From: an uncultured virus (IMG/VR IMGVR_UViG_3300044646_001664)
Lineage: Duplodnaviria > Heunggongvirae > Uroviricota > Caudoviricetes
DNA length: 64,000 nucleotides
Strand: one strand, 5' to 3'
Virus record (IMG/VR): IMGVR_UViG_3300044646_001664
The notes beneath the pieces are model-generated. The model was not told the origin of the DNA. It did no database searches and saw only the letters and a program-made list of their open reading frames with translations. A program made the position numbers and the translations under genes. The stretch's first letter is position 1. The number at the start of each line of letters is the position of its first letter. Positions 40,973 to 48,539 of the stretch are shown here, piece after piece.

Positions 40973-41127
40973 AAATATAACTAAGCAATTTGAAAACGCA
41001 GTTGAATTAACTAATTTAACCGAAGCGCAATTAGAAATTGTTAAACAAATTTTATTAGATAAATTTAACTAATAAAAAATTTTTGCAGAAATAAAAACTC
41101 TGCAAAAAACCCGGCTCCCCTGGCGTG

Positions 41128-41160
41128 TCGTCCACAGCCTGTGGATAAACCTGTGGATAA
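41128..41160 (-). promoter_or_regulatory. DnaA box cluster
   Basis: TGTGGATAA at 41140 and 41152, plus an inverted 7/9 box TCGTCCACA at 41128. Confidence 0.75.
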
Positions 41161-41171
41161 CTTACGTACGA

Positions 41172-41187
41172 TGTGATTTTTCTCACA
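41172..41187. promoter_or_regulatory. CRP/GlxR-type site, perfect consensus
   Basis: TGTGA-TTTTTC-TCACA. Confidence 0.75.
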
Positions 41188-41235
41188 CAGTTTGAGCGTC
41201 TTATTATTTGAGATTACTGGCTAGTAGGTTGTAAA

Positions 41236-41991: not shown

Positions 41992-42140
41992 TGATAAGTA
42001 GCGTAATGACTTTTAAATGCGACCAATGCAATAATGCAGGTTATATCTTTTGGGGAGATAACCTTGACTATGATGTAGAAAAATGCCAATGCGAAAATTT
42101 TGCCCTTGGAACTTTATTTACTAGCGGGGAGGCTGACTAA
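41991..42140 (+). CDS. Zn-finger micro-protein (49 aa), paralog of 42907..43071
   Basis: CDQC...G.I.WG...DYDVE.C.C. Confidence 0.5.
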   Translation: MISSVMTFKCDQCNNAGYIFWGDNLDYDVEKCQCENFALGTLFTSGEAD

Positions 42141-42349
42141 TGAAAACAATTAAACACTACATAACACTAGAAACTGAAATTCTTAACGAAAACGATATAA
42201 CTGCTAAGGCTCTTTTATCTTTACCTAAAGAAACACAACAAATTAGACTAACTGAATTAGCCTATATTGCTTTATCTGAAACAATAGAAAAAGAGTTAAT
42301 AAAGTTAAATAAAAACAATTCTTTTGCTGTCTTAAAGTTGGTTAAATAA
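42140..42349 (+). CDS. Hypothetical early protein
   Basis: GGAGG RBS, TAATG coupling. Confidence 0.55.
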   Translation: MKTIKHYITLETEILNENDITAKALLSLPKETQQIRLTELAYIALSETIEKELIKLNKNNSFAVLKLVK

Positions 42350-42561
42350 TGATGACTAGAAAATCTTATATCCAAACCGCAAACATCTTAAAAGGATTTG
42401 TAGATGAAATTCCACAAAATACTTATGAGGATTTAGTTCAAGAATTTGCTGAGTGGTTTAAATCAGATAATGAAAACTTTGACTACGCAAGATTTGAAAA
42501 GGCTTGCGGAATTGATGAAATTGGTTTAATTCCTGTTGGTTCTGAAATGTGGAAGGGGTAA
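42349..42561 (+). CDS. Hypothetical early protein
   Basis: MTRK.Y...A.IL...F..DN.NFD..RF..AC pattern, seen in phage early regions. Confidence 0.55.
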   Translation: MMTRKSYIQTANILKGFVDEIPQNTYEDLVQEFAEWFKSDNENFDYARFEKACGIDEIGLIPVGSEMWKG

Positions 42562-42718
42562 AACAATGATAACTAATTTAGATTTAATTGCAATAATTAT
42601 TGCGCTAAGTGGTTCAATGTTGGTAATGTTTTTATTTTATAAACAAAATGTTGCACAACAAAAAGAAATTCGCAGATTGCGAAATGAATTGCGTAAAGCA
42701 TTTAAAGTATAAATAAAA

Positions 42719-42746
42719 ATTCCTGAGCAAGAATAAAAACTGCTCA
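42719..42746 (+). ncRNA. 3' H-type pseudoknot motif, copy 1
   Basis: ATTC-C-TGAGCA-A-GAAT-AAAAAC-TGCTCA. Confidence 0.65.
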
Positions 42747-42759
42747 AACATTTGTTCGA
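42744..42759. promoter_or_regulatory. Actinobacterial LexA (SOS) box
   Basis: TCAAAC-ATTT-GTTCGA; one mismatch to TCGAAC-N4-GTTCGA. Confidence 0.5.
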
Positions 42760-42859
42760 AAAACCCGGCGCAGGCGGCGTGTCGCAATCTATACATGACC
42801 TTTACGTGTGGTTAAGATCACACCCTAAATTCCCCAGATTAAGGCGTCTAATTGGATTT

Positions 42860-42881
42860 TGTCAGTTGTATCTGCTAGGAT
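42860..42881 (+). promoter_or_regulatory. RecA-NDp/PafBC-type promoter
   Basis: TGTCAG-TTGTATCTGC-TAGGAT; 9/10 CRP site upstream at 42807-42822. Confidence 0.7.
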
Positions 42882-42906
42882 AAAGATATAAAGAAAGAAG
42901 GAACAA

Positions 42907-43071
42907 ATGGGTAAAGTAAAAGAAGCACTAATGGATATATTAGAGCATGACCTATGCTATGGCTATGGTTGGTTATATCAAGGAAATAATGTAGACTTTG
43001 ATAGTGAGGTTTGCGAGTGTAATCCTTACGCTATATCTGCTGATGAAATAATGGAATGGAAAGGACTATAA
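42907..43071 (+). CDS. Zn-finger micro-protein (54 aa)
   Basis: AAGGA RBS; HDLC.G.GWLY.G...DFD.E.CEC. Confidence 0.5.
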   Translation: MGKVKEALMDILEHDLCYGYGWLYQGNNVDFDSEVCECNPYAISADEIMEWKGL

Positions 43072-43286
43072 TGGATAAAGAATATACTTATTCACTTACT
43101 ACTTCATATGATGGAGAGTTAATAAATACCCTGCGAGTTAGCGATATGCTAGAAGCAGTTAGGGCTTGGGATAAATGCGTGGACTATGGCTTTGCTAAAG
43201 AATACGCAACCTATAACTTGTCTGACCCAACAGGTAAGATGTATACTAAAACCTTCTACACTAACGGAGAGGTCGTAATTAAATAA
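43071..43286 (+). CDS. Hypothetical early protein
   Basis: MDKEYTY start by TAATG overlap, GAAAGGA RBS. Confidence 0.55.
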   Translation: MDKEYTYSLTTSYDGELINTLRVSDMLEAVRAWDKCVDYGFAKEYATYNLSDPTGKMYTKTFYTNGEVVIK

Positions 43287-43582
43287 TGGGAAGCATAACA
43301 GCAATAGGTTTAGCAGATACAACGCTAGACCTAGAAACACAATTAAAGTATCACCTGCAAGGTAATCATTATCCACCAATACCAACAGTAATGGTTCAGC
43401 CATGTATTGAGGCTATTGACGCATACTATGAGGAGGATTATTCTCGTAGAATAGAATTACCAGTTGTAGATGGATTTCAAATTAGTTGGAAAGGCAACAC
43501 TTGGACTACCGCCAGCGCATTGGTATCACACGCACACCTAGAGTGGTTCATTGAGCCAGCAGATGAGGACTTATATGAGTAA
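43286..43582 (+). CDS. Hypothetical early protein
   Basis: HL..NHYPP.P...C.EAI motif, seen in phage proteins. Confidence 0.6.
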   Translation: MGSITAIGLADTTLDLETQLKYHLQGNHYPPIPTVMVQPCIEAIDAYYEEDYSRRIELPVVDGFQISWKGNTWTTASALVSHAHLEWFIEPADEDLYE

Positions 43583-43667
43583 AGACTTGCAAGATAAGTT
43601 AGACGCAGTTGCTAAAATTTTAGAACCTATCCTATGGGAAACATTAGCAGAAATTGAGGCTGAATAA

Positions 43668-43901
43668 ATGGCTGCTACAATGATGAACATGGAATTAAAG
43701 AAAATAGATATTCTCAAACCTTCTATGATGATGGTTGGAGATTTTATTAGATACAATGATGAGGTAGTTGAAATACTTTCTCTTGAATCTGATCCTGACC
43801 AATACTTTTGGTATGCAGAATATCAAAATGAGTTTGGTGAAAAAGATACCGCTCAGTTAGTTGATAATGAATACTATGATTGGTATATTCACTTAGAATA
43901 A
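43668..43901 (+). CDS. Hypothetical early protein (SH3/KOW-like)
   Basis: VGDFI....V.I pattern. Confidence 0.45.
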   Translation: MAATMMNMELKKIDILKPSMMMVGDFIRYNDEVVEILSLESDPDQYFWYAEYQNEFGEKDTAQLVDNEYYDWYIHLE

Positions 43902-44004
43902 TTTTTCTGCACTTCCCCGCAGAAAAACCCGGCCCTGCCCGATTTGTCCGTTTTGTACCTTACGTACACTTGATATTTTCTCCACATTCTGCTAAAATAT
44001 TTAT

Positions 44005-44733
44005 ATGACAACATCACAATTAAAAAGATCATTTGACAGAAAGGTTGCTAATCTTGTCACAAAAAATGGAAAGCAAGCCGCAATTGCAAACACGTTCGGT
44101 CTTCCCGCTGGAAAGAATTATTCATGCCCTGGTGCCACTAGTGTTTGTGAAAGTGTTTGCTACGCAGGAAAACTTGAAAAACTCTACAAAGCCGTAAAGG
44201 CAAACCTAATACATAATTGGGAATTATTAAAAGACGCTGACGAATCGACTATGATTGATCTATTGCAGAATATGATTAATGATTTTAAAAAAGATTGTGA
44301 AAAGAAAAATGCGTCATTGTTATTTCGTATTCATTGGGACGGTGATTTCTTTAATGACACGTACACCAAAGCATGGAAACAAATCATCCTTAACAATACA
44401 GATATAAAATTCTGGGTATATACAAGGGTACAGCCTGCAGCGGTAATGCTAAAGGATATTCCTAATCTATCCTTATACTATTCAACAGACAGCGAGAATA
44501 AGCAGATAGGCGTTAGTTTAAAGAAAGATCATGGGGTACGCCTTGCATACCTTGCACAGAATTTTGCAATAGGTCAGGCAGATATGAAGGAGTTATTTAA
44601 TCGACCTGGTGCTAAGTGCCCTGAAAACCTAAAAGCCATTCCACTTATCTCAAGCGCTGGCTCGGCTTGCGTATCTTGCGGTTTGTGTGTATACTCTAAG
44701 AGCGACATAGTCTTTTCATCATCTAAGAAATAA
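44005..44733 (+). CDS. Gp88-like Fe-S/radical-SAM-related phage protein
   Basis: SCPGAT..C...CYA, FRIHWDGDF, FWVYTR, C-terminal CP...CxxCxxC. Confidence 0.65.
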   Translation: MTTSQLKRSFDRKVANLVTKNGKQAAIANTFGLPAGKNYSCPGATSVCESVCYAGKLEKLYKAVKANLIHNWELLKDADESTMIDLLQNMINDFKKDCEKKNASLLFRIHWDGDFFNDTYTKAWKQIILNNTDIKFWVYTRVQPAAVMLKDIPNLSLYYSTDSENKQIGVSLKKDHGVRLAYLAQNFAIGQADMKELFNRPGAKCPENLKAIPLISSAGSACVSCGLCVYSKSDIVFSSSKK

Positions 44734-44806
44734 GGGGCATATGGAGATACTAATAGTATTATCACTTATATTCTTATATATCCTATTCTCAGGCATGGGG
44801 CATTAG

Positions 44807-44822
44807 TGTGATGTATCTCACA
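44807..44822. promoter_or_regulatory. CRP/GlxR-type site, perfect consensus
   Basis: TGTGA-TGTATC-TCACA, abutting TCTCA-N5-TGAGA. Confidence 0.75.
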
Positions 44823-44917
44823 TCTCAATATATGAGATTATCCATGAGATAATTTGTATTTTTGACCAAAAAATGTTAGACTTATACAGTAAGCAAAAAC
44901 CAACAAGAAGGAGAACC

Positions 44918-45088
44918 ATGTCCGTATCAAACGCAACATACAAGGTAGGCGACACCTACACATCACAAAAATCAAAGGTAGTAGGAACTATTACCGAAAT
45001 TGTGCCAACTAACAAAAACACAGTTAGAGTTAAGTTAGATGTTAATGGCTCAACTCGCTGGACAACTTGGACAGCAAAGAACGCTTAA
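44918..45088 (+). CDS. Small SH3/KOW-like protein, paralog of 45678..45848
   Basis: AAGGAG RBS; TY..GD..T..K..V.G.I....P......RV.L...GS.R. Confidence 0.6.
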   Translation: MSVSNATYKVGDTYTSQKSKVVGTITEIVPTNKNTVRVKLDVNGSTRWTTWTAKNA

Positions 45089-45107
45089 TCTTAGCCTAGT
45101 GGCTAAA

Positions 45108-45134
45108 GTCCTGAGCATGACGAGAAACTGCTCA
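45108..45134 (+). ncRNA. 3' H-type pseudoknot motif, copy 2
   Basis: GTC-C-TGAGCA-T-GAC-GAGAAAC-TGCTCA. Confidence 0.6.
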
Positions 45135-45173
45135 ACTCAAAAGCCCCACTAACAGAAATGGAAACCCATCACA

Positions 45174-45596
45174 ATGGCAAGAAGCAAACCCATCAGCGTA
45201 AAAATCGCTACTGCTAAGGTTATTACAGCCTTAGAAAATAGATTAGCAGAGTTAGAGGCTAACTATAAAACACAAGACGAGAACGAAGCAAAGTTCCAAG
45301 TCGCAATAGAGGCTTGGAAAAAAGAACTATTTGCTTTTGCTATCGCTAATGTTTCTAAGGCAGAAAACCTACGCACTAACTATCGTCAATGGTCAAGCAA
45401 CCTTAATGTTGATTTTGATTTAACAGTTAAGGAAGGCGAGTTCCCTGCTGAGCCTCAAAGAGAGTTTGAGCAACTCCATGCTCATACCTATCGTGAGCAG
45501 AAAGAGGAAATGGAAAACGCTATCCGTATCCTCAAAATGACCGACGAGGAAACAGTTAATACTAGCACATATAACGCTATCGCAAGATACTTGTAA
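45174..45596 (+). CDS. Hypothetical coiled-coil early protein
   Basis: 140-aa ORF with highly-expressed-type codon usage. Confidence 0.65.
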   Translation: MARSKPISVKIATAKVITALENRLAELEANYKTQDENEAKFQVAIEAWKKELFAFAIANVSKAENLRTNYRQWSSNLNVDFDLTVKEGEFPAEPQREFEQLHAHTYREQKEEMENAIRILKMTDEETVNTSTYNAIARYL

Positions 45597-45677
45597 TAGT
45601 TTGGGGGTATTTGACTATGCCCCCAAAATATGTTAGACTAAATAAGTAAGCAACCACCACAACAGAAAAGGAAAATC

Positions 45678-45848
45678 ATGACACTAGGCGGATACACATA
45701 CCAACTAGGTGATTTATTCACCACTAGTAAAACAGGCGTAACTGGTAGAATTGTAAAGTTCTCACCACTTAACTCTAAACTTACTAGAGTATCACTACAA
45801 TTAGCAAACGGCTCTCGTCGTCTTGCTATGGTAAGCACAACTAAATAA
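45678..45848 (+). CDS. Small SH3/KOW-like protein (56 aa, not in ORF track)
   Basis: TTGACT-N17-TAGACT promoter, AAGGA RBS, MTLGGYTYQLGDLFTTSK... Confidence 0.6.
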   Translation: MTLGGYTYQLGDLFTTSKTGVTGRIVKFSPLNSKLTRVSLQLANGSRRLAMVSTTK

Positions 45849-45954
45849 ATAATCTTGGGGTAGGTTTGTAACGTGTAATCACTTAAGTCCCTGCCCCAAC
45901 CATATTTATCTCTGATAAGCACTTGGCTTAATTGCTAAGTTATTCCTGAGATAA

Positions 45955-45984
45955 GACTCCTGAGCATGAGTTCTAAACTGCTCA
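45955..45984 (+). ncRNA. 3' H-type pseudoknot motif, copy 3
   Basis: GACTC-C-TGAGCA-T-GAGTT-CTAAAC-TGCTCA. Confidence 0.65.
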
Positions 45985-46119
45985 TCTTTTAATTGCCCCC
46001 GCAAAAATCCGGGGCAGCGTGATTTAAATCACATCTCATTATGTGAGACTAATTAAGAACTGAACTTGCATTTCCACAATCTTGATGATATTATTGTATT
46101 AACAGAAAAGGAACCCCTA

Positions 46120-46587
46120 ATGAGCGAAGTAATGACACAGGAGCAGTTATCTGTTCCATACAATCCTAACCTACTTGTTACGTACAAGTATGTTCCAGAA
46201 ACATATGCAGCACCTGAAAGCCCTACATTCATGACTGATAAGGTTACTCAGATTGAATGGGACCTACATAACGGTCGTACTACTCAAAAACAATTAGCAG
46301 AGAGACGCTTAGATATAAGTTGGTTAGAGGAACAAATTGTAGAATGGTATGACCCTAACTATACTAAAGAAGAAGTGTTGCAAGCAATCATAGAACACTT
46401 TGGGTTTAATCCAACTAAGCAAATTGAAGTTCAAGGTACCGTATCGTTCAGCGGAACGATTAATATTCCACTGTCAGAGATTGAAGACTTTGACCTTAGC
46501 AATGTAACAATTGATGTTGATCTAAGTTCATATGAGTATGACGCAGATCTTAATGTGGACGAAGTATCTTTGGAGGACCACTACTAA
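46120..46587 (+). CDS. Acidic hypothetical early protein
   Basis: AAGGA RBS before MSEV; D/E-rich C-terminus. Confidence 0.6.
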   Translation: MSEVMTQEQLSVPYNPNLLVTYKYVPETYAAPESPTFMTDKVTQIEWDLHNGRTTQKQLAERRLDISWLEEQIVEWYDPNYTKEEVLQAIIEHFGFNPTKQIEVQGTVSFSGTINIPLSEIEDFDLSNVTIDVDLSSYEYDADLNVDEVSLEDHY

Positions 46588-46606
46588 ATTTGATAGGGGG
46601 CTATCA

Positions 46607-46636
46607 ACGTCGTGGGCCAAGACGTAAAACTGGCCC
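46607..46636 (+). ncRNA. 3' H-type pseudoknot motif, copy 4 (compensated variant)
   Basis: ACGTC-GT-GGGCCA-A-GACGT-AAAAC-TGGCCC. Confidence 0.65.
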
Positions 46637-46712
46637 TAACAAAAACCCGGCCCCGCCCTAAATGTCCGATTTGTACCAATTAAGAAGATTAAACCATTTT
46701 CCCCAATCCTAG

Positions 46713-46741
46713 TTGACATTGTCAGCCATGACTGCTAAACT
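46713..46741 (+). promoter_or_regulatory. Dual promoter: canonical -35 plus RecA-NDp/PafBC element
   Basis: TTGACA-t-TGTCAG-CCATGACTGC-TAAACT. Confidence 0.75.
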
Positions 46742-46767
46742 TAGTTAAAACAACCGAAAGGATAAAA

Positions 46768-47784
46768 ATGGCTCATGATTTAGAAACTCAAAATGGCGTA
46801 GCAAGTTTTGCATCATTTAGAGAGCCTGCATGGCACAATCTTGGTACTGTATTTGATACTGAGAAAAATACAAGTGAAATGCTTGTTGCTGCTAATCTTA
46901 ATAATTGGAATGTTAGACTAGAGGATTTAGAAATCCCATCTAGTTTAGTATCTGACAAACAATATCAATATGTTGTTCGTACAAATCCTACTGATAAATC
47001 TCAAACTGATGTTTTGGGAATTGTTGGGCAGCGTTATGTTCCACTACAAAATGAGGATTTATTTGCCTTTGGCGATAACATTCTTGATGGTGGTGGGCGT
47101 TGGGAAACCGCTGGCTCAATTAGTGGTGGGCGTGTAGTATTTGGCTCATTAGCATTAGAGCGTGAAACTGTATTAGACCCTAATGGCGTTGCTGATGTTG
47201 TAAAGACTTATTTACTCATCAACACTTCACATGATGGTTCAATCGCTATTCAAGCAAGCATAACACCTGTTCGTGTTGTGTGTGCTAATACTCTTAATGT
47301 TGCACTAAACCGCACTAAGAAAAAAGATGGCGTAAAGCAATCTTTCAAAATCCGTCATACCCAAACTGCTGAGGGCAAAATTGCTATTGCTCGTCAGGCA
47401 CTAGGCATGGCTAACGCTTACATGACTGAGTTCGATAAGATGGCTCATGCTATGATAGCAAAAGAAATCTCAGCACAAGATTTCAATAACATTATTCTTG
47501 CTGCTTATCCTAAGCCTGAATTAGATACTAAGGGCGCAGTAAAGAAATGGGAAAACAAGGTAGATATGATTAACGATATCTATACTGGTGAATTTAACGG
47601 AATGATTGCTGGTAATGCGTGGGGTGCGTTCAATGCGCTAACTGAGCGTTTAGACTGGTATCGTTCATCTCGTAGTGCAAATGGCGAAAGCATGTTTGCT
47701 GCTGCTTCTGGATTTGACCCTGCTACCAATGCAGAAAAAAATCGTTTGCTAAGTATTGTTCAAAATACTTTACAAATAGTTTAA
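46768..47784 (+). CDS. DUF932 (phage/plasmid-like TIGR03299) family protein
   Basis: PAWH.LG, LG.VG..Y..LQN, ETAG...GG..VF, SHDGS, TPVRVVCANTL, AWGAFNA.TE. Confidence 0.85.
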   Translation: MAHDLETQNGVASFASFREPAWHNLGTVFDTEKNTSEMLVAANLNNWNVRLEDLEIPSSLVSDKQYQYVVRTNPTDKSQTDVLGIVGQRYVPLQNEDLFAFGDNILDGGGRWETAGSISGGRVVFGSLALERETVLDPNGVADVVKTYLLINTSHDGSIAIQASITPVRVVCANTLNVALNRTKKKDGVKQSFKIRHTQTAEGKIAIARQALGMANAYMTEFDKMAHAMIAKEISAQDFNNIILAAYPKPELDTKGAVKKWENKVDMINDIYTGEFNGMIAGNAWGAFNALTERLDWYRSSRSANGESMFAAASGFDPATNAEKNRLLSIVQNTLQIV

Positions 47785-47789
47785 CAATA

Positions 47790-47818
47790 AAATCCTGAGC
47801 AAGATTTAAAACTGCTCA
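47790..47818 (+). ncRNA. 3' H-type pseudoknot motif, copy 5
   Basis: AAATC-C-TGAGCA-A-GATTT-AAAAC-TGCTCA. Confidence 0.65.
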
Positions 47819-47823
47819 TCATT

Positions 47824-47897
47824 GGTTCTGTAGCATAGTTGGTTAATGCGCTACCCTGTCACGGTAGAGATCGTGGGTTCAAGTCCCATCAGAGCCG
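47824..47897 (+). tRNA. tRNA-Asp(GTC), CCA not encoded
   Basis: Acceptor GGTTCTG/CAGAGCC, anticodon arm CTACC-CTGTCAC-GGTAG, T arm GTGGG-TTCAAGT-CCCAT, discriminator G. Confidence 0.92.
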
Positions 47898-48539
47898 CCC
47901 CGGGTTTTCTTTCTTTAAATAATAACACATGATTGCTTCATTAAGAAAGATTGACTTTTTCCCCAGTTTCCTGTAAAATATTAACATGACCACAATTAAC
48001 AAACCACTAACCATAGACGGCCTAATAATGAATATATATGAGGACAACTCTGAACATTTTGACTTTATATATAGCATGAATAATGGAGACTGCGATTGTT
48101 GTCTTCACTTTGCAATGAATTTGATTAAGGAGTATGATAGATAATGTTAGGTTATACATATAAAGATATACAGGCCTTTGGTAATAGTTTAACTTGGGCT
48201 ATTGATACCGCCAAAAACCAGGGGGATGAACAAAACTATAAACAATTACTAATAGTATGGGACTTCTTTGAGGGACTACTAGCAGAAGGTTACATAGATG
48301 AGAACACATACTATGGATAATGGCGAGATCTTAGATAAGATTATAGAACTTATAAACACAGACGGAGAGATCATGTCTGATGAAGAGGTTGTTAATAATA
48401 TTAGGGGACTTCTTGAGACTAACCCTCAAACCTATTGGGGAGCAAGCCAAAGCAGTGTGATGTAGATCACCTTACGATATCTTGTAATTTTTCCCAGTTC
48501 GTAGTAAAATTGTATTAAGAACCTAAAGAAAGAGACCCA

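Follow-up and report, generated by a model that had tools for sequence, protein, structure and literature searches.

A 28-nucleotide H-type pseudoknot repeated behind early genes of an uncultured phage and found in unrelated phages

What is the same small RNA fold doing behind one early gene after another of a phage genome? The question is raised by a stretch of 64,000 nucleotides (nt; hereafter the window) from an uncultured virus of the Caudoviricetes (IMG/VR record IMGVR_UViG_3300044646_001664), in which an earlier note, made from the sequence alone, had described five copies of a compact H-type pseudoknot, hereafter the knot. Two stems, P1 and P2, are interleaved in the order P1-L1-P2-L2-P1'-L3-P2', where L1, L2 and L3 are the loops. 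All five copies are indeed present on the + strand, with the positions and pairings collected in Table 1, P2 being TGAGCA/TGCTCA in four of them and the compensated pair GGGCCA/TGGCCC in copy 4. The structural claim of the earlier note has withstood the examination of a much larger set of sites and emerges strengthened. The element is an H-type pseudoknot, both helices of which are backed by compensatory changes; it is co-oriented with the genes and belongs to no Rfam family.

When IMG/VR was scanned for the P2 arms and AAAC, P1 not being demanded, at least 122 matches were obtained, and among the matches listed 113 have a P1 of at least 3 base pairs (bp) at the expected register, in many different sequences. 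In a set of 98 unique sites, again chosen by P2 and AAAC only, P1 reaches at least 4 bp in 73, whereas swapping the upstream segments among the sites gave 12.7 on average and never more than 26, and 24 distinct junction-proximal P1 4-mers are represented. The covariation of P1, on which the claim of the earlier note hung, is thus upheld beyond the window. A prokaryotic control (one genome for each of 185,579 species), scanned with a slightly stricter pattern, yielded 75 matches, 52 of which have a P1 of 2 bp or less; these are chance matches, mostly in coding sequence, for example in sigma-54 activator genes. The 23 others, with a P1 of at least 3 bp, lie mostly on short contigs of metagenome-assembled genomes (MAGs), and several share their flanks with IMG/VR sites.

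An independent view of P2 was obtained by demanding only a P1 hairpin with an 8-nt loop, then ...AAAC. Among 398 rows with a non-canonical loop, in which one element may recur at several P1 lengths, all six P2 positions pair in 26, against 4 of 1194 with slid partners. The P2 variants TGGGCA/TGCCCA, TGGGTA/TGCCCA, TAAGCA/TGCTTA, TGAGTA/TACTCA, TGGATA/TATCCA, TGAACA/TGTTCA and TGGCCA/TGGCCA are among those that occur, besides window copy 4, in whole genomes of relatives (G003, G004 and G006) or in the 10-kb flanks of the IMG/VR sites. In an alignment of 121 members, 97.9% of the cells pair, compared with 21-40% with slid partners, a contrast that is partly circular because the members were picked for pairing; the permutation and slid-partner tests are fairer. 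This alignment includes 16 U-G wobbles in P2, and the nearest upstream open reading frame (ORF) lies on the same strand in 108 cases and on the opposite strand in 20. Both observations point to the sense RNA as the seat of the fold. Taken as lone hairpins, the P1 and P2 stems of the four TGAGCA copies have energies of -0.1 to -2.9 and of ~-5.5 kcal/mol, respectively. Because neither helix alone is stable, the conserved features are sensible for a knot only. A loose structure descriptor used alone does not reach significance (86 matches, and 101 in reversed sequence), whereas its signature version discriminates well (142 matches vs 8).

At the scale of the window, the P2 inverted repeat TGAGCA-N6-20-TGCTCA is found five times for 0.03 expected, and none of 100 shuffles reaches five. 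Four of these matches are knots and the fifth is an unrelated hairpin (45467-45484, TGAGCA-aactcc-(a)TGCTCA) inside the ORF 45174-45596, with the P2 arms and a 6-nt loop and without P1, which is probably a chance occurrence or a relic. A covariance model, the check that the earlier note had proposed, was built from the 121 members and finds the four TGAGCA copies with E ~1e-10, these copies being themselves in the training set; in the rest of the 64 kb it finds nothing else better than E 0.8. Copy 4, with its divergent P2 sequence, is missed by this model and picked up by the structure descriptor only. The degenerate sixth copy suspected at 41079-41104 does not belong to the family, since it is a plain hairpin devoid of the L1 C and of the C-G pair closing P1.

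The anatomy of the family was established on 116 distinct cores. The element is ~27-30 nt long in the sense transcript, and its two P2 arms are 11 to 19 nt apart. P1 comprises 3-7 bp of free sequence, with a first pair that is always C-G, as was demanded by the descriptor, a second pair that is A-U or U-A in 106/116 and a third that is G-C or C-G in 87/116. L1 is a single C in 110 of the 116 cores and spans the groove of P2, which always has 6 bp, with the consensus UGRGYA/UGCYCA and a junction A-U pair that is invariant (121/121). L2 consists of one variable nucleotide (T 53, A 32, C 13 and G 2 of 116). L3, of 4-13 nt, is 58% A and ends with WAAAC at its 3' side. Immediately 3' of P2', C is the commonest base (64 of the 116 cores), ahead of A (29), T (22) and G (1). 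Conservation is thus centred on the helix junction, the place of the tertiary contacts in compact triple-helical knots such as those of luteovirus frameshift sites, T2 gene 32 and the preQ1-I aptamer, a parallel drawn by analogy. An upstream hairpin, P0 (stem of at least 5 bp), accompanies 51 of 140 sites vs 18% of random positions, which amounts to a roughly twofold enrichment of a feature that is not universal. In the case of copy 2, covarying versions of P0 occur at orthologous sites (TTCCT/AGGAA, TTAGC/GCTAA).

Does such an element belong to a known family? A scan of the whole window against Rfam 15 at gathering thresholds returned tRNA only. Relaxing the E value up to 10 over 42600-47900 added chance matches away from the knots and no family, and 20 IMG/VR loci searched with E up to 0.1 gave tRNAs only. 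Literature searches by motif strings and by concept found no description of the family. A published catalogue of structured RNAs from IMG/VR (PMC10690425) may contain it; one of its candidates, DNAVirus_1850, is a 66-nt marine motif near a tRNA-Asp. The fold type is classical, and the family, its breadth and its placement are described neither in Rfam nor in the literature searched. Whatever its function, the element makes a clear candidate for a new RNA family, and culturable carrier phages are available as models.

How far does the family extend? The 10-kb flanks of the sites fall into 41 groups by shared proteins, and a freshwater super-group of 59 loci holds the relatives of the window. 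A single knot is found in Arthrobacter phage Amigo, 7 nt after the stop of the gene for the single-stranded-DNA-binding protein (SSB) and 2 nt ahead of a tRNA-Gly, in Roseophage SIO1, 3' of a ribonucleotide reductase gene, and in the crAss-like phage cr7_1, 5' of a primase gene. The crAss-like phage cr8_1 (locus L363, record 65695-65723) also has one knot, in which the annotated stop of the upstream gene lies inside the 5' arm of P2 (TGAGTAA); every terminating ribosome therefore has to open the knot. One knot each was likewise found in Bacillus phage vB_BceM_WH1, Christensenellales phage NatCom_6392 and a faecal phage contig. The named carriers were reached by BLAST, a route that favours the canonical P2; the four that were scanned whole have a single copy each. 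We take the hosts of the carriers to belong to the Actinomycetota, Alphaproteobacteria, Bacteroidota and Bacillota. A sequence-conserved 28-nt fold in phages of several host phyla is rare, phage RNA elements being usually lineage-specific. BLAST matches in Prevotella phage Lak-A1 and in a Flavobacterium phage were set aside as chance matches, not knots. Contigs whose bins are assigned to Methanobrevibacter, Saccharibacteria and Nanopelagicaceae carry the knot too. On contigs binned with archaea or the candidate phyla radiation, namely L132 and L138 (Methanobrevibacter MAG), L137 and L143 (Saccharibacteria) and L184 (Poseidonia, a 504-nt contig), the knots are well formed and are followed by U-tracts or by an apparent tRNA gene start. 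These contigs may represent viruses that infect such hosts, or else may have been binned wrongly.

In the genomes and loci compared, the knot is not accompanied by any constant protein. Whole-genome comparison of seven carriers (Amigo, SIO1, cr7_1, G003, G004, G006 and the phage of the window) revealed no protein family common to all seven and, at the BLAST level, none present in more than four; the sole family that ties a named phage to the group of the window is the ribonucleotide reductase of SIO1. A search for a partner protein within 10 kb of ~100 sites was equally negative, the commonest family being present in only 26 loci. The genes next to the knot belong to 27 clusters on its upstream side and to 32 on its downstream side, and no theme unites them.

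As to placement, among 147 unique sites 78 are intergenic between co-directional genes, 11 convergent, 8 divergent and 1 inside a same-strand ORF. The knot follows the upstream stop codon at a median distance of 25 nt (minimum 4), the next called gene being farther away. In the window, the five copies lie 6, 19, 106, 19 and 5 nt after the preceding stop, in agreement with the proximity to stops reported by the earlier note. A same-strand tRNA begins 3-7 nt downstream in 10/148 sites (eight orthologous Asp, one Leu and one Glu), and the order knot then tRNA-Asp is the same at eight loci of related contigs. Including copy 5 of the window and Amigo, 12 knots of at least three lineages lie 2-7 nt ahead of a tRNA. 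In L337 (238-326), a knot with a P2 variant (GGAACA/TGTTCT) directly adjoins the 3' end of a tRNA-Met, and a canonical knot lies 59 nt after this tRNA.

Downstream of P2', a U-rich tail (at least 6 T in the next 9 nt) is present in 26 of the 147 sites vs 2.9% in the background, and is lacking in the 121 others. Among the window copies only copy 3 has a T-rich tail, so that the earlier statement that most copies lack a U-tract holds; a terminator consensus scan called no terminator at any of the five. The 10 nt after P2' are pyrimidine-rich and contain 7.9% G vs 20% overall, normal composition being recovered from +10. A strong promoter-like -10 lies within 54 nt downstream in 19/147 sites vs 6%, 11 of the 19 being at one distance (+10 nt). 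A related observation concerns ~20 IMG/VR contigs (L005, L020, L277 and others) that carry a near-identical knot with P1 ATAGAC/GTCTAT and a 3-nt L2, in the 3' region of an Hsp20-like small heat-shock gene; an extended -10, TGcTATAAT, stands 10 nt after its P2'.

What function would account for this placement? We tentatively favour, at slightly short of an even chance, a self-sufficient cis module that defines and protects the 3' end of the upstream message. That the element acts in cis and is self-contained, or relies on universal machinery only, is suggested because the family is independent of host lineage and phage proteins, has unrelated neighbours and combines a conserved junction with a free P1. 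A 3'-end module fits best because the knots are placed behind stops, sit tight on tRNA 5' ends and are enriched in U-tails; these same features make end-marking and protection the best fit among the functions listed in the earlier note, which included blocking of 3' exonucleases, a mark for processing or termination, and a decoy. The knot would act in cis, with no need of a phage protein, as a portable punctuation at cistron boundaries. Enzymes degrading from 3' to 5' and entering from a downstream cut or termination point would halt at the knot, leaving the ORF and its stop codon intact. Where a tRNA follows 2-7 nt downstream, the RNase P cut would leave the knot as the 3'-terminal structure of the upstream RNA, and where a U-tract follows, the end would be formed by termination instead. 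Exonucleases acting from the 3' end need some minimum of unpaired bases to engage, and a few unpaired bases at most would be left behind the rigid knot, too few for engagement. Canonical terminator-like hairpins are rare within 100 nt downstream (9/147), so that these ends would have no other protection. The downstream leader may be insulated by the rigid fold as well. If true, such a self-sufficient end protector or insulator would explain a protein-free tuning of single-cistron stability in gene-dense phage operons, would tie the tRNA genes of phage genomes to mRNA 3'-end formation, and would provide a very small portable part for synthetic operons.

Several observations weigh against this proposal. 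The RNA evidence consists of metatranscriptome contigs only, which show no RNA ends. UGAGCA/UGCUCA is kept in about two thirds of the copies in four genomes, as well as in unrelated named phages, and this counts against the proposal because a pure roadblock would not require a conserved P2 sequence. The single copy in each of the four wholly scanned named phages is odd for a general stabiliser. Convergent ends are not enriched (11 sites for 206 convergent junctions vs 78 for 1154 co-directional ones, with crude gene calls). A Shine-Dalgarno motif with a start codon lies within 80 nt downstream in 53/147 sites vs 15% in the background, and the knot may therefore have a role for the downstream gene. 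Finally, promoter-like TATAAT boxes stand directly ahead of a few copies (L061, L073), which may lie in 5' leaders.

The enriched U-rich tails, the place behind stop codons and the G-poor, pyrimidine-rich segment after P2', whose span is about the length of an RNA-DNA hybrid, could also be explained if the knot folded in the RNA exit channel and made RNA polymerase pause, giving together with a U-rich hybrid a partial intrinsic termination (attenuation) between cistrons. Pausing stabilised by a pseudoknot is described for the preQ1-I knot (PMC11625349), and the excess of promoter-like -10 sequences points in the same direction, though more than half of them share one distance. We nevertheless judge this explanation unlikely: most sites, and all window copies except copy 3, lack the U-rich tail; the 12 knots just ahead of tRNAs precede genes that must be transcribed through the knot; convergent junctions are not enriched; and the carriers, crAss-like phages included, span several host phyla with differing terminator rules. 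The conservation of the P2 sequence, the L1 C, the closing C-G pair and AAAC across unrelated hosts while P1 varies, the single copy per genome in the named phages and the lack of a protein family common to the seven carriers would all suit a specific ligand carried on abundant phage transcripts, which would either capture a universal host factor, as a decoy or sponge, or serve as a small-molecule aptamer of minimal size. Were the knot to bind such a factor or ligand, it would represent a new minimal aptamer or decoy. This seems quite unlikely, given that the flanking genes share no theme, that L2 is variable, that P2 is a full 6-bp helix without an obvious pocket and that there is no expression platform; the conserved positions lie at the junction and are explicable by the tertiary contacts of the fold itself.

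The linkage to tRNAs (the 12 close knots and the one abutting the 3' end of tRNA-Met) could instead reflect a processing signal, in the form of a mimic of a tRNA arm, cleaved by RNase P (or RNase Z), or of a tiny self-cleaving RNA that splits polycistrons. The stack of P2 on P1, inferred to be ~10-12 bp, would match an acceptor plus T arm in length, and the distribution is, as for ribozymes, independent of phage proteins. On the other hand, the bases after P2' do not form a CCA-like tail, ARAGORN and Rfam, tRNA-clan models included, find no tRNA-like or ribozyme-like fold at the knots, 28 nt is far below all known natural self-cleaving classes, and a surrogate tRNA mark would be redundant beside a real tRNA, so that we hold this reading to be very unlikely. 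That the signal would act at the DNA level, as an operator, a promoter element or a single-stranded-DNA structure site, is hardly credible. Some copies do adjoin promoter-like sequences, and several window copies lie upstream of a repeated AAAACCCGG element and of palindromes. However, duplex DNA cannot accommodate two interleaved covarying helices, each U-G wobble would turn into an A-C mismatch on the complementary strand, the spacing of the P2 arms varies, and the strand of the knot tracks gene orientation.

Table 1. Coordinates of the knot copies and of associated features in the window
Feature	Position	Strand	Sequence or pairing	Parts and setting
Plain 10-bp hairpin	41079-41108	- (terminator-like site in scan)	TTTTTGCAGA / TCTGCAAAAA	A/T flanks
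Pseudoknot copy 1	42719-42746	+	ATTC c TGAGCA a GAAT aaaaac TGCTCA	P1 42719-42722/42731-42734; L1 C 42723; P2 42724-42729/42741-42746; L2 A 42730; L3 AAAAAC 42735-42740; 3' of stop codon 42710-42712
Hairpin P0 upstream of copy 2 (accessory)	45091-45106	+	TTAGCC-tagt-GGCTAA	Between stop 45086-45088 and knot
Pseudoknot copy 2	45108-45134	+	GTC c TGAGCA t GAC gagaaac TGCTCA	P1 45108-45110/45119-45121; L1 C 45111; P2 45112-45117/45129-45134; L3 GAGAAAC; downstream ORF starts at 45174
Pseudoknot copy 3	45955-45984	+	GACTC c TGAGCA t GAGTT ctaaac TGCTCA	P1 45955-45959/45968-45972 (one G-U pair); L1 C 45960; P2 45961-45966/45979-45984; T-rich tail (tcttttaatt), then GC-rich hairpin on the 3' side
Hairpin P0 upstream of copy 4 (accessory)	46592-46605	+	GATAG-gggg-CTATC	Directly 3' of stop 46585-46587
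Pseudoknot copy 4	46607-46636	+	ACGTC gt GGGCCA a GACGT aaaac TGGCCC	P1 46607-46611/46621-46625; L1 GT; compensated P2 GGGCCA 46614-46619/TGGCCC 46631-46636
Pseudoknot copy 5	47790-47818	+	AAATC c TGAGCA a GATTT aaaac TGCTCA	P1 47790-47794/47803-47807; L1 C 47795; P2 47796-47801/47813-47818; after stop codon 47782-47784
tRNA-Asp (GTC)	47823-47900	+		4 nt 3' of copy 5

The surroundings of the knots in the window deserve a description of their own. The window has ~36% G+C. Structural genes occupy its - strand as far as ~37 kb, and from ~40 kb onwards numerous small genes are encoded on the + strand. The portal protein of this phage is ~45% identical to Streptomyces phage portals. The stretch recurs in many lake-water metagenome runs, and its nearest record (G001, 86 kb) has the same four canonical knot copies; a near-identity search of the knot region against cultured phages gave no match. 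The early region (42000-48500) is largely covered by contigs of four lake metatranscriptome runs (X19-X22), with 90-99% likeness, which include variants of copy 2 with other P1 sequences (loose end at 45121). These being contigs, starts, ends and strand are unreadable and carry-over of DNA is possible. Contig joints between knot copies, such as that of copies 1 and 5 (42746 to 47822), resemble jumps made by the assembler at the repeat.

A second intergenic repeat, AAAACCCGG followed by a GC-rich stretch, is found on the + strand at 41106, 42760, 43924 and 46642, and may be an operator or a regulatory module. Knot copies 1 and 4 stand 13 and 5 nt ahead of it. At two other positions, directly 5' of AAAACCCGG, plain hairpins take the place of the knot, at 41079-41108 and at ~43905-43923 (TCTGC-acttcccc-GCAGA). 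Two copies of AAAACCCGG are followed by a conserved TGTCCG(A/T)TTTGTACC, upstream of sigma-70-like promoters at 43970-43998 and 46713-46741. The head of the + strand gene block also carries two tandem perfect DnaA-box-like nonamers (TGTGGATAA, at 41140-41148 and 41153-41161) and a CRP-like palindrome, TGTGA-N6-TCACA, at 41173-41188; DnaA boxes and GTGAT...ATCAC palindromes of a similar kind come after knots in the related contigs L009, L033, L068, L085, L088 and L099. A 140-aa protein starting with MARxKxISVK... (window 45174-45596; L225 13314-13736) is bracketed by knots in relatives: in 13 loci a knot precedes its gene by 35-72 nt, and in 13 loci one follows it by 5-61 nt. Neither PHROGs nor Pfam gave a match for this protein, and cultured phages gave no hit.

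It remains to compare the knot with systems already described. In its place just after stops, its enrichment in U-tails and its expected effect on the stability of the upstream cistron, it resembles intrinsic terminators and REP-type stabilisers. It differs from them in being a knot and not a GC-rich hairpin: in the four TGAGCA copies, P2 by itself closes a loop of 11-14 nt and contributes no more than ~-5.5 kcal/mol. Most copies have no U-tract. Resemblances to hammerhead-like, CRISPR-repeat-like (…ACUAAAAC) and tRNA D-stem-like sequences were dropped because the P2 variants lose those letters. The self-cleaving classes (hammerhead, twister, pistol, hatchet, hepatitis delta virus-like) were rejected as well, with no Rfam match and with the CUGA of the 5' arm lost in CUAAGCA, CUGGAUA and CUGGCCA.

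A further likeness is to the frameshift knots of luteoviruses, of the beet western yellows virus type, and to the gene 32 leader knots of phages T2 and T4, which belong to the same size class (~28 nt), with two coaxial stems, an A-rich loop along the minor groove of stem 1 and, as in the present family, a 1-nt loop over the groove of a stem 2 of 6-7 bp. The gene 32 knot, too, forms part of a phage mRNA (PMC3014915). Unlike those knots, the family is repeated in the phage of the window and spread across phage lineages, and it follows the stops of many unrelated genes instead of being tied to an SSB gene as an operator. A stimulator of -1 frameshifting sits in overlapping coding sequence, 5-9 nt 3' of a slippery heptamer. 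The knots come after stop codons, and a same-strand ORF contains just 1 of the 147, so that their setting is not one of frameshifting.

The preQ1-I aptamer (RF00522) shares the topology P1-L1-P2-L2-P1'-A-rich L3-P2', with an L3 ending in ...AAAC. Its "quintuple base motif" combines adenines of L3 and a pyrimidine of L1 with a G-C pair (PMC11625349), and the junction of the family, with its P1 G-C pair, L3 adenines and L1 pyrimidine, may by analogy recall this motif. Other features described for the aptamer are a specificity cytosine in L2, a short P2 and an L1 of 2-3 nt that holds a conserved U (PMC11625349). The family was not assigned to this class: L1 has 1 nt (not ~3), P2 has 6 bp (not 3-4) and L2 is variable, without the specificity cytosine. 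Moreover, preQ1-I riboswitches sit in 5' leaders of queuosine-pathway or transporter genes and have an expression platform, whereas the genes downstream of the family fall into 32 unrelated clusters without a queuosine link, and the knot is nearer to the upstream stop than to the downstream start.

Type III antitoxins (ToxI, CptI, TenpI) are pseudoknots of similar size, arranged as tandem 36-45-nt repeats beside a toxin gene, and phages reportedly carry RNA mimics of them (pseudo-ToxI; PMC3475682). The earlier note had drawn this parallel, which found no support: the copies in the window form no tandem array but stand singly, 650-2400 nt from one another, P1 is hypervariable, and each named phage scanned whole has one copy (n=4). 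When the ORFs next to the knots were scanned with PHROGs and Pfam, no endoribonuclease toxin of the ToxN, CptN or TenpN families was named, no search aimed at ToxN and none with PADLOC having been made.

Viral exoribonuclease-resistant RNAs (xrRNAs) of flaviviruses and plant viruses share with the knot a small viral pseudoknotted fold and a proposed action as a roadblock to a processive RNase. They differ from it as ~70-nt ring folds at a three-way junction that block the 5'-to-3' exonuclease Xrn1, without likeness in sequence or secondary structure and without any Rfam match. In MALAT1 and MEN-beta, a triple helix followed by mascRNA, and in the viral ENE, an A-rich triple helix lies just 5' of an RNase P site and provides a nuclease-resistant end. 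The likeness here comes from the 12 knots found 2-7 nt before real tRNAs, protection being only proposed. Unlike MALAT1, the family is bacterial or phage-borne, has 28 nt compared with ~60-nt U-rich stems on an A-tract, and has no adjacent tRNA in most copies. A bolder proposition, which we regard as doubtful, is that a triple-helical "end cap" of 28 nt, independent of host and protein, is common to the phages of many bacterial phyla and stops processive RNases, RNase P making the end in the knot-tRNA arrangement. If it were true, this cap would be the smallest natural nuclease-resistant fold known, and prokaryotes would have in it their equivalent of the MALAT1 triple helix/mascRNA pathway and of the viral xrRNA and ENE elements.

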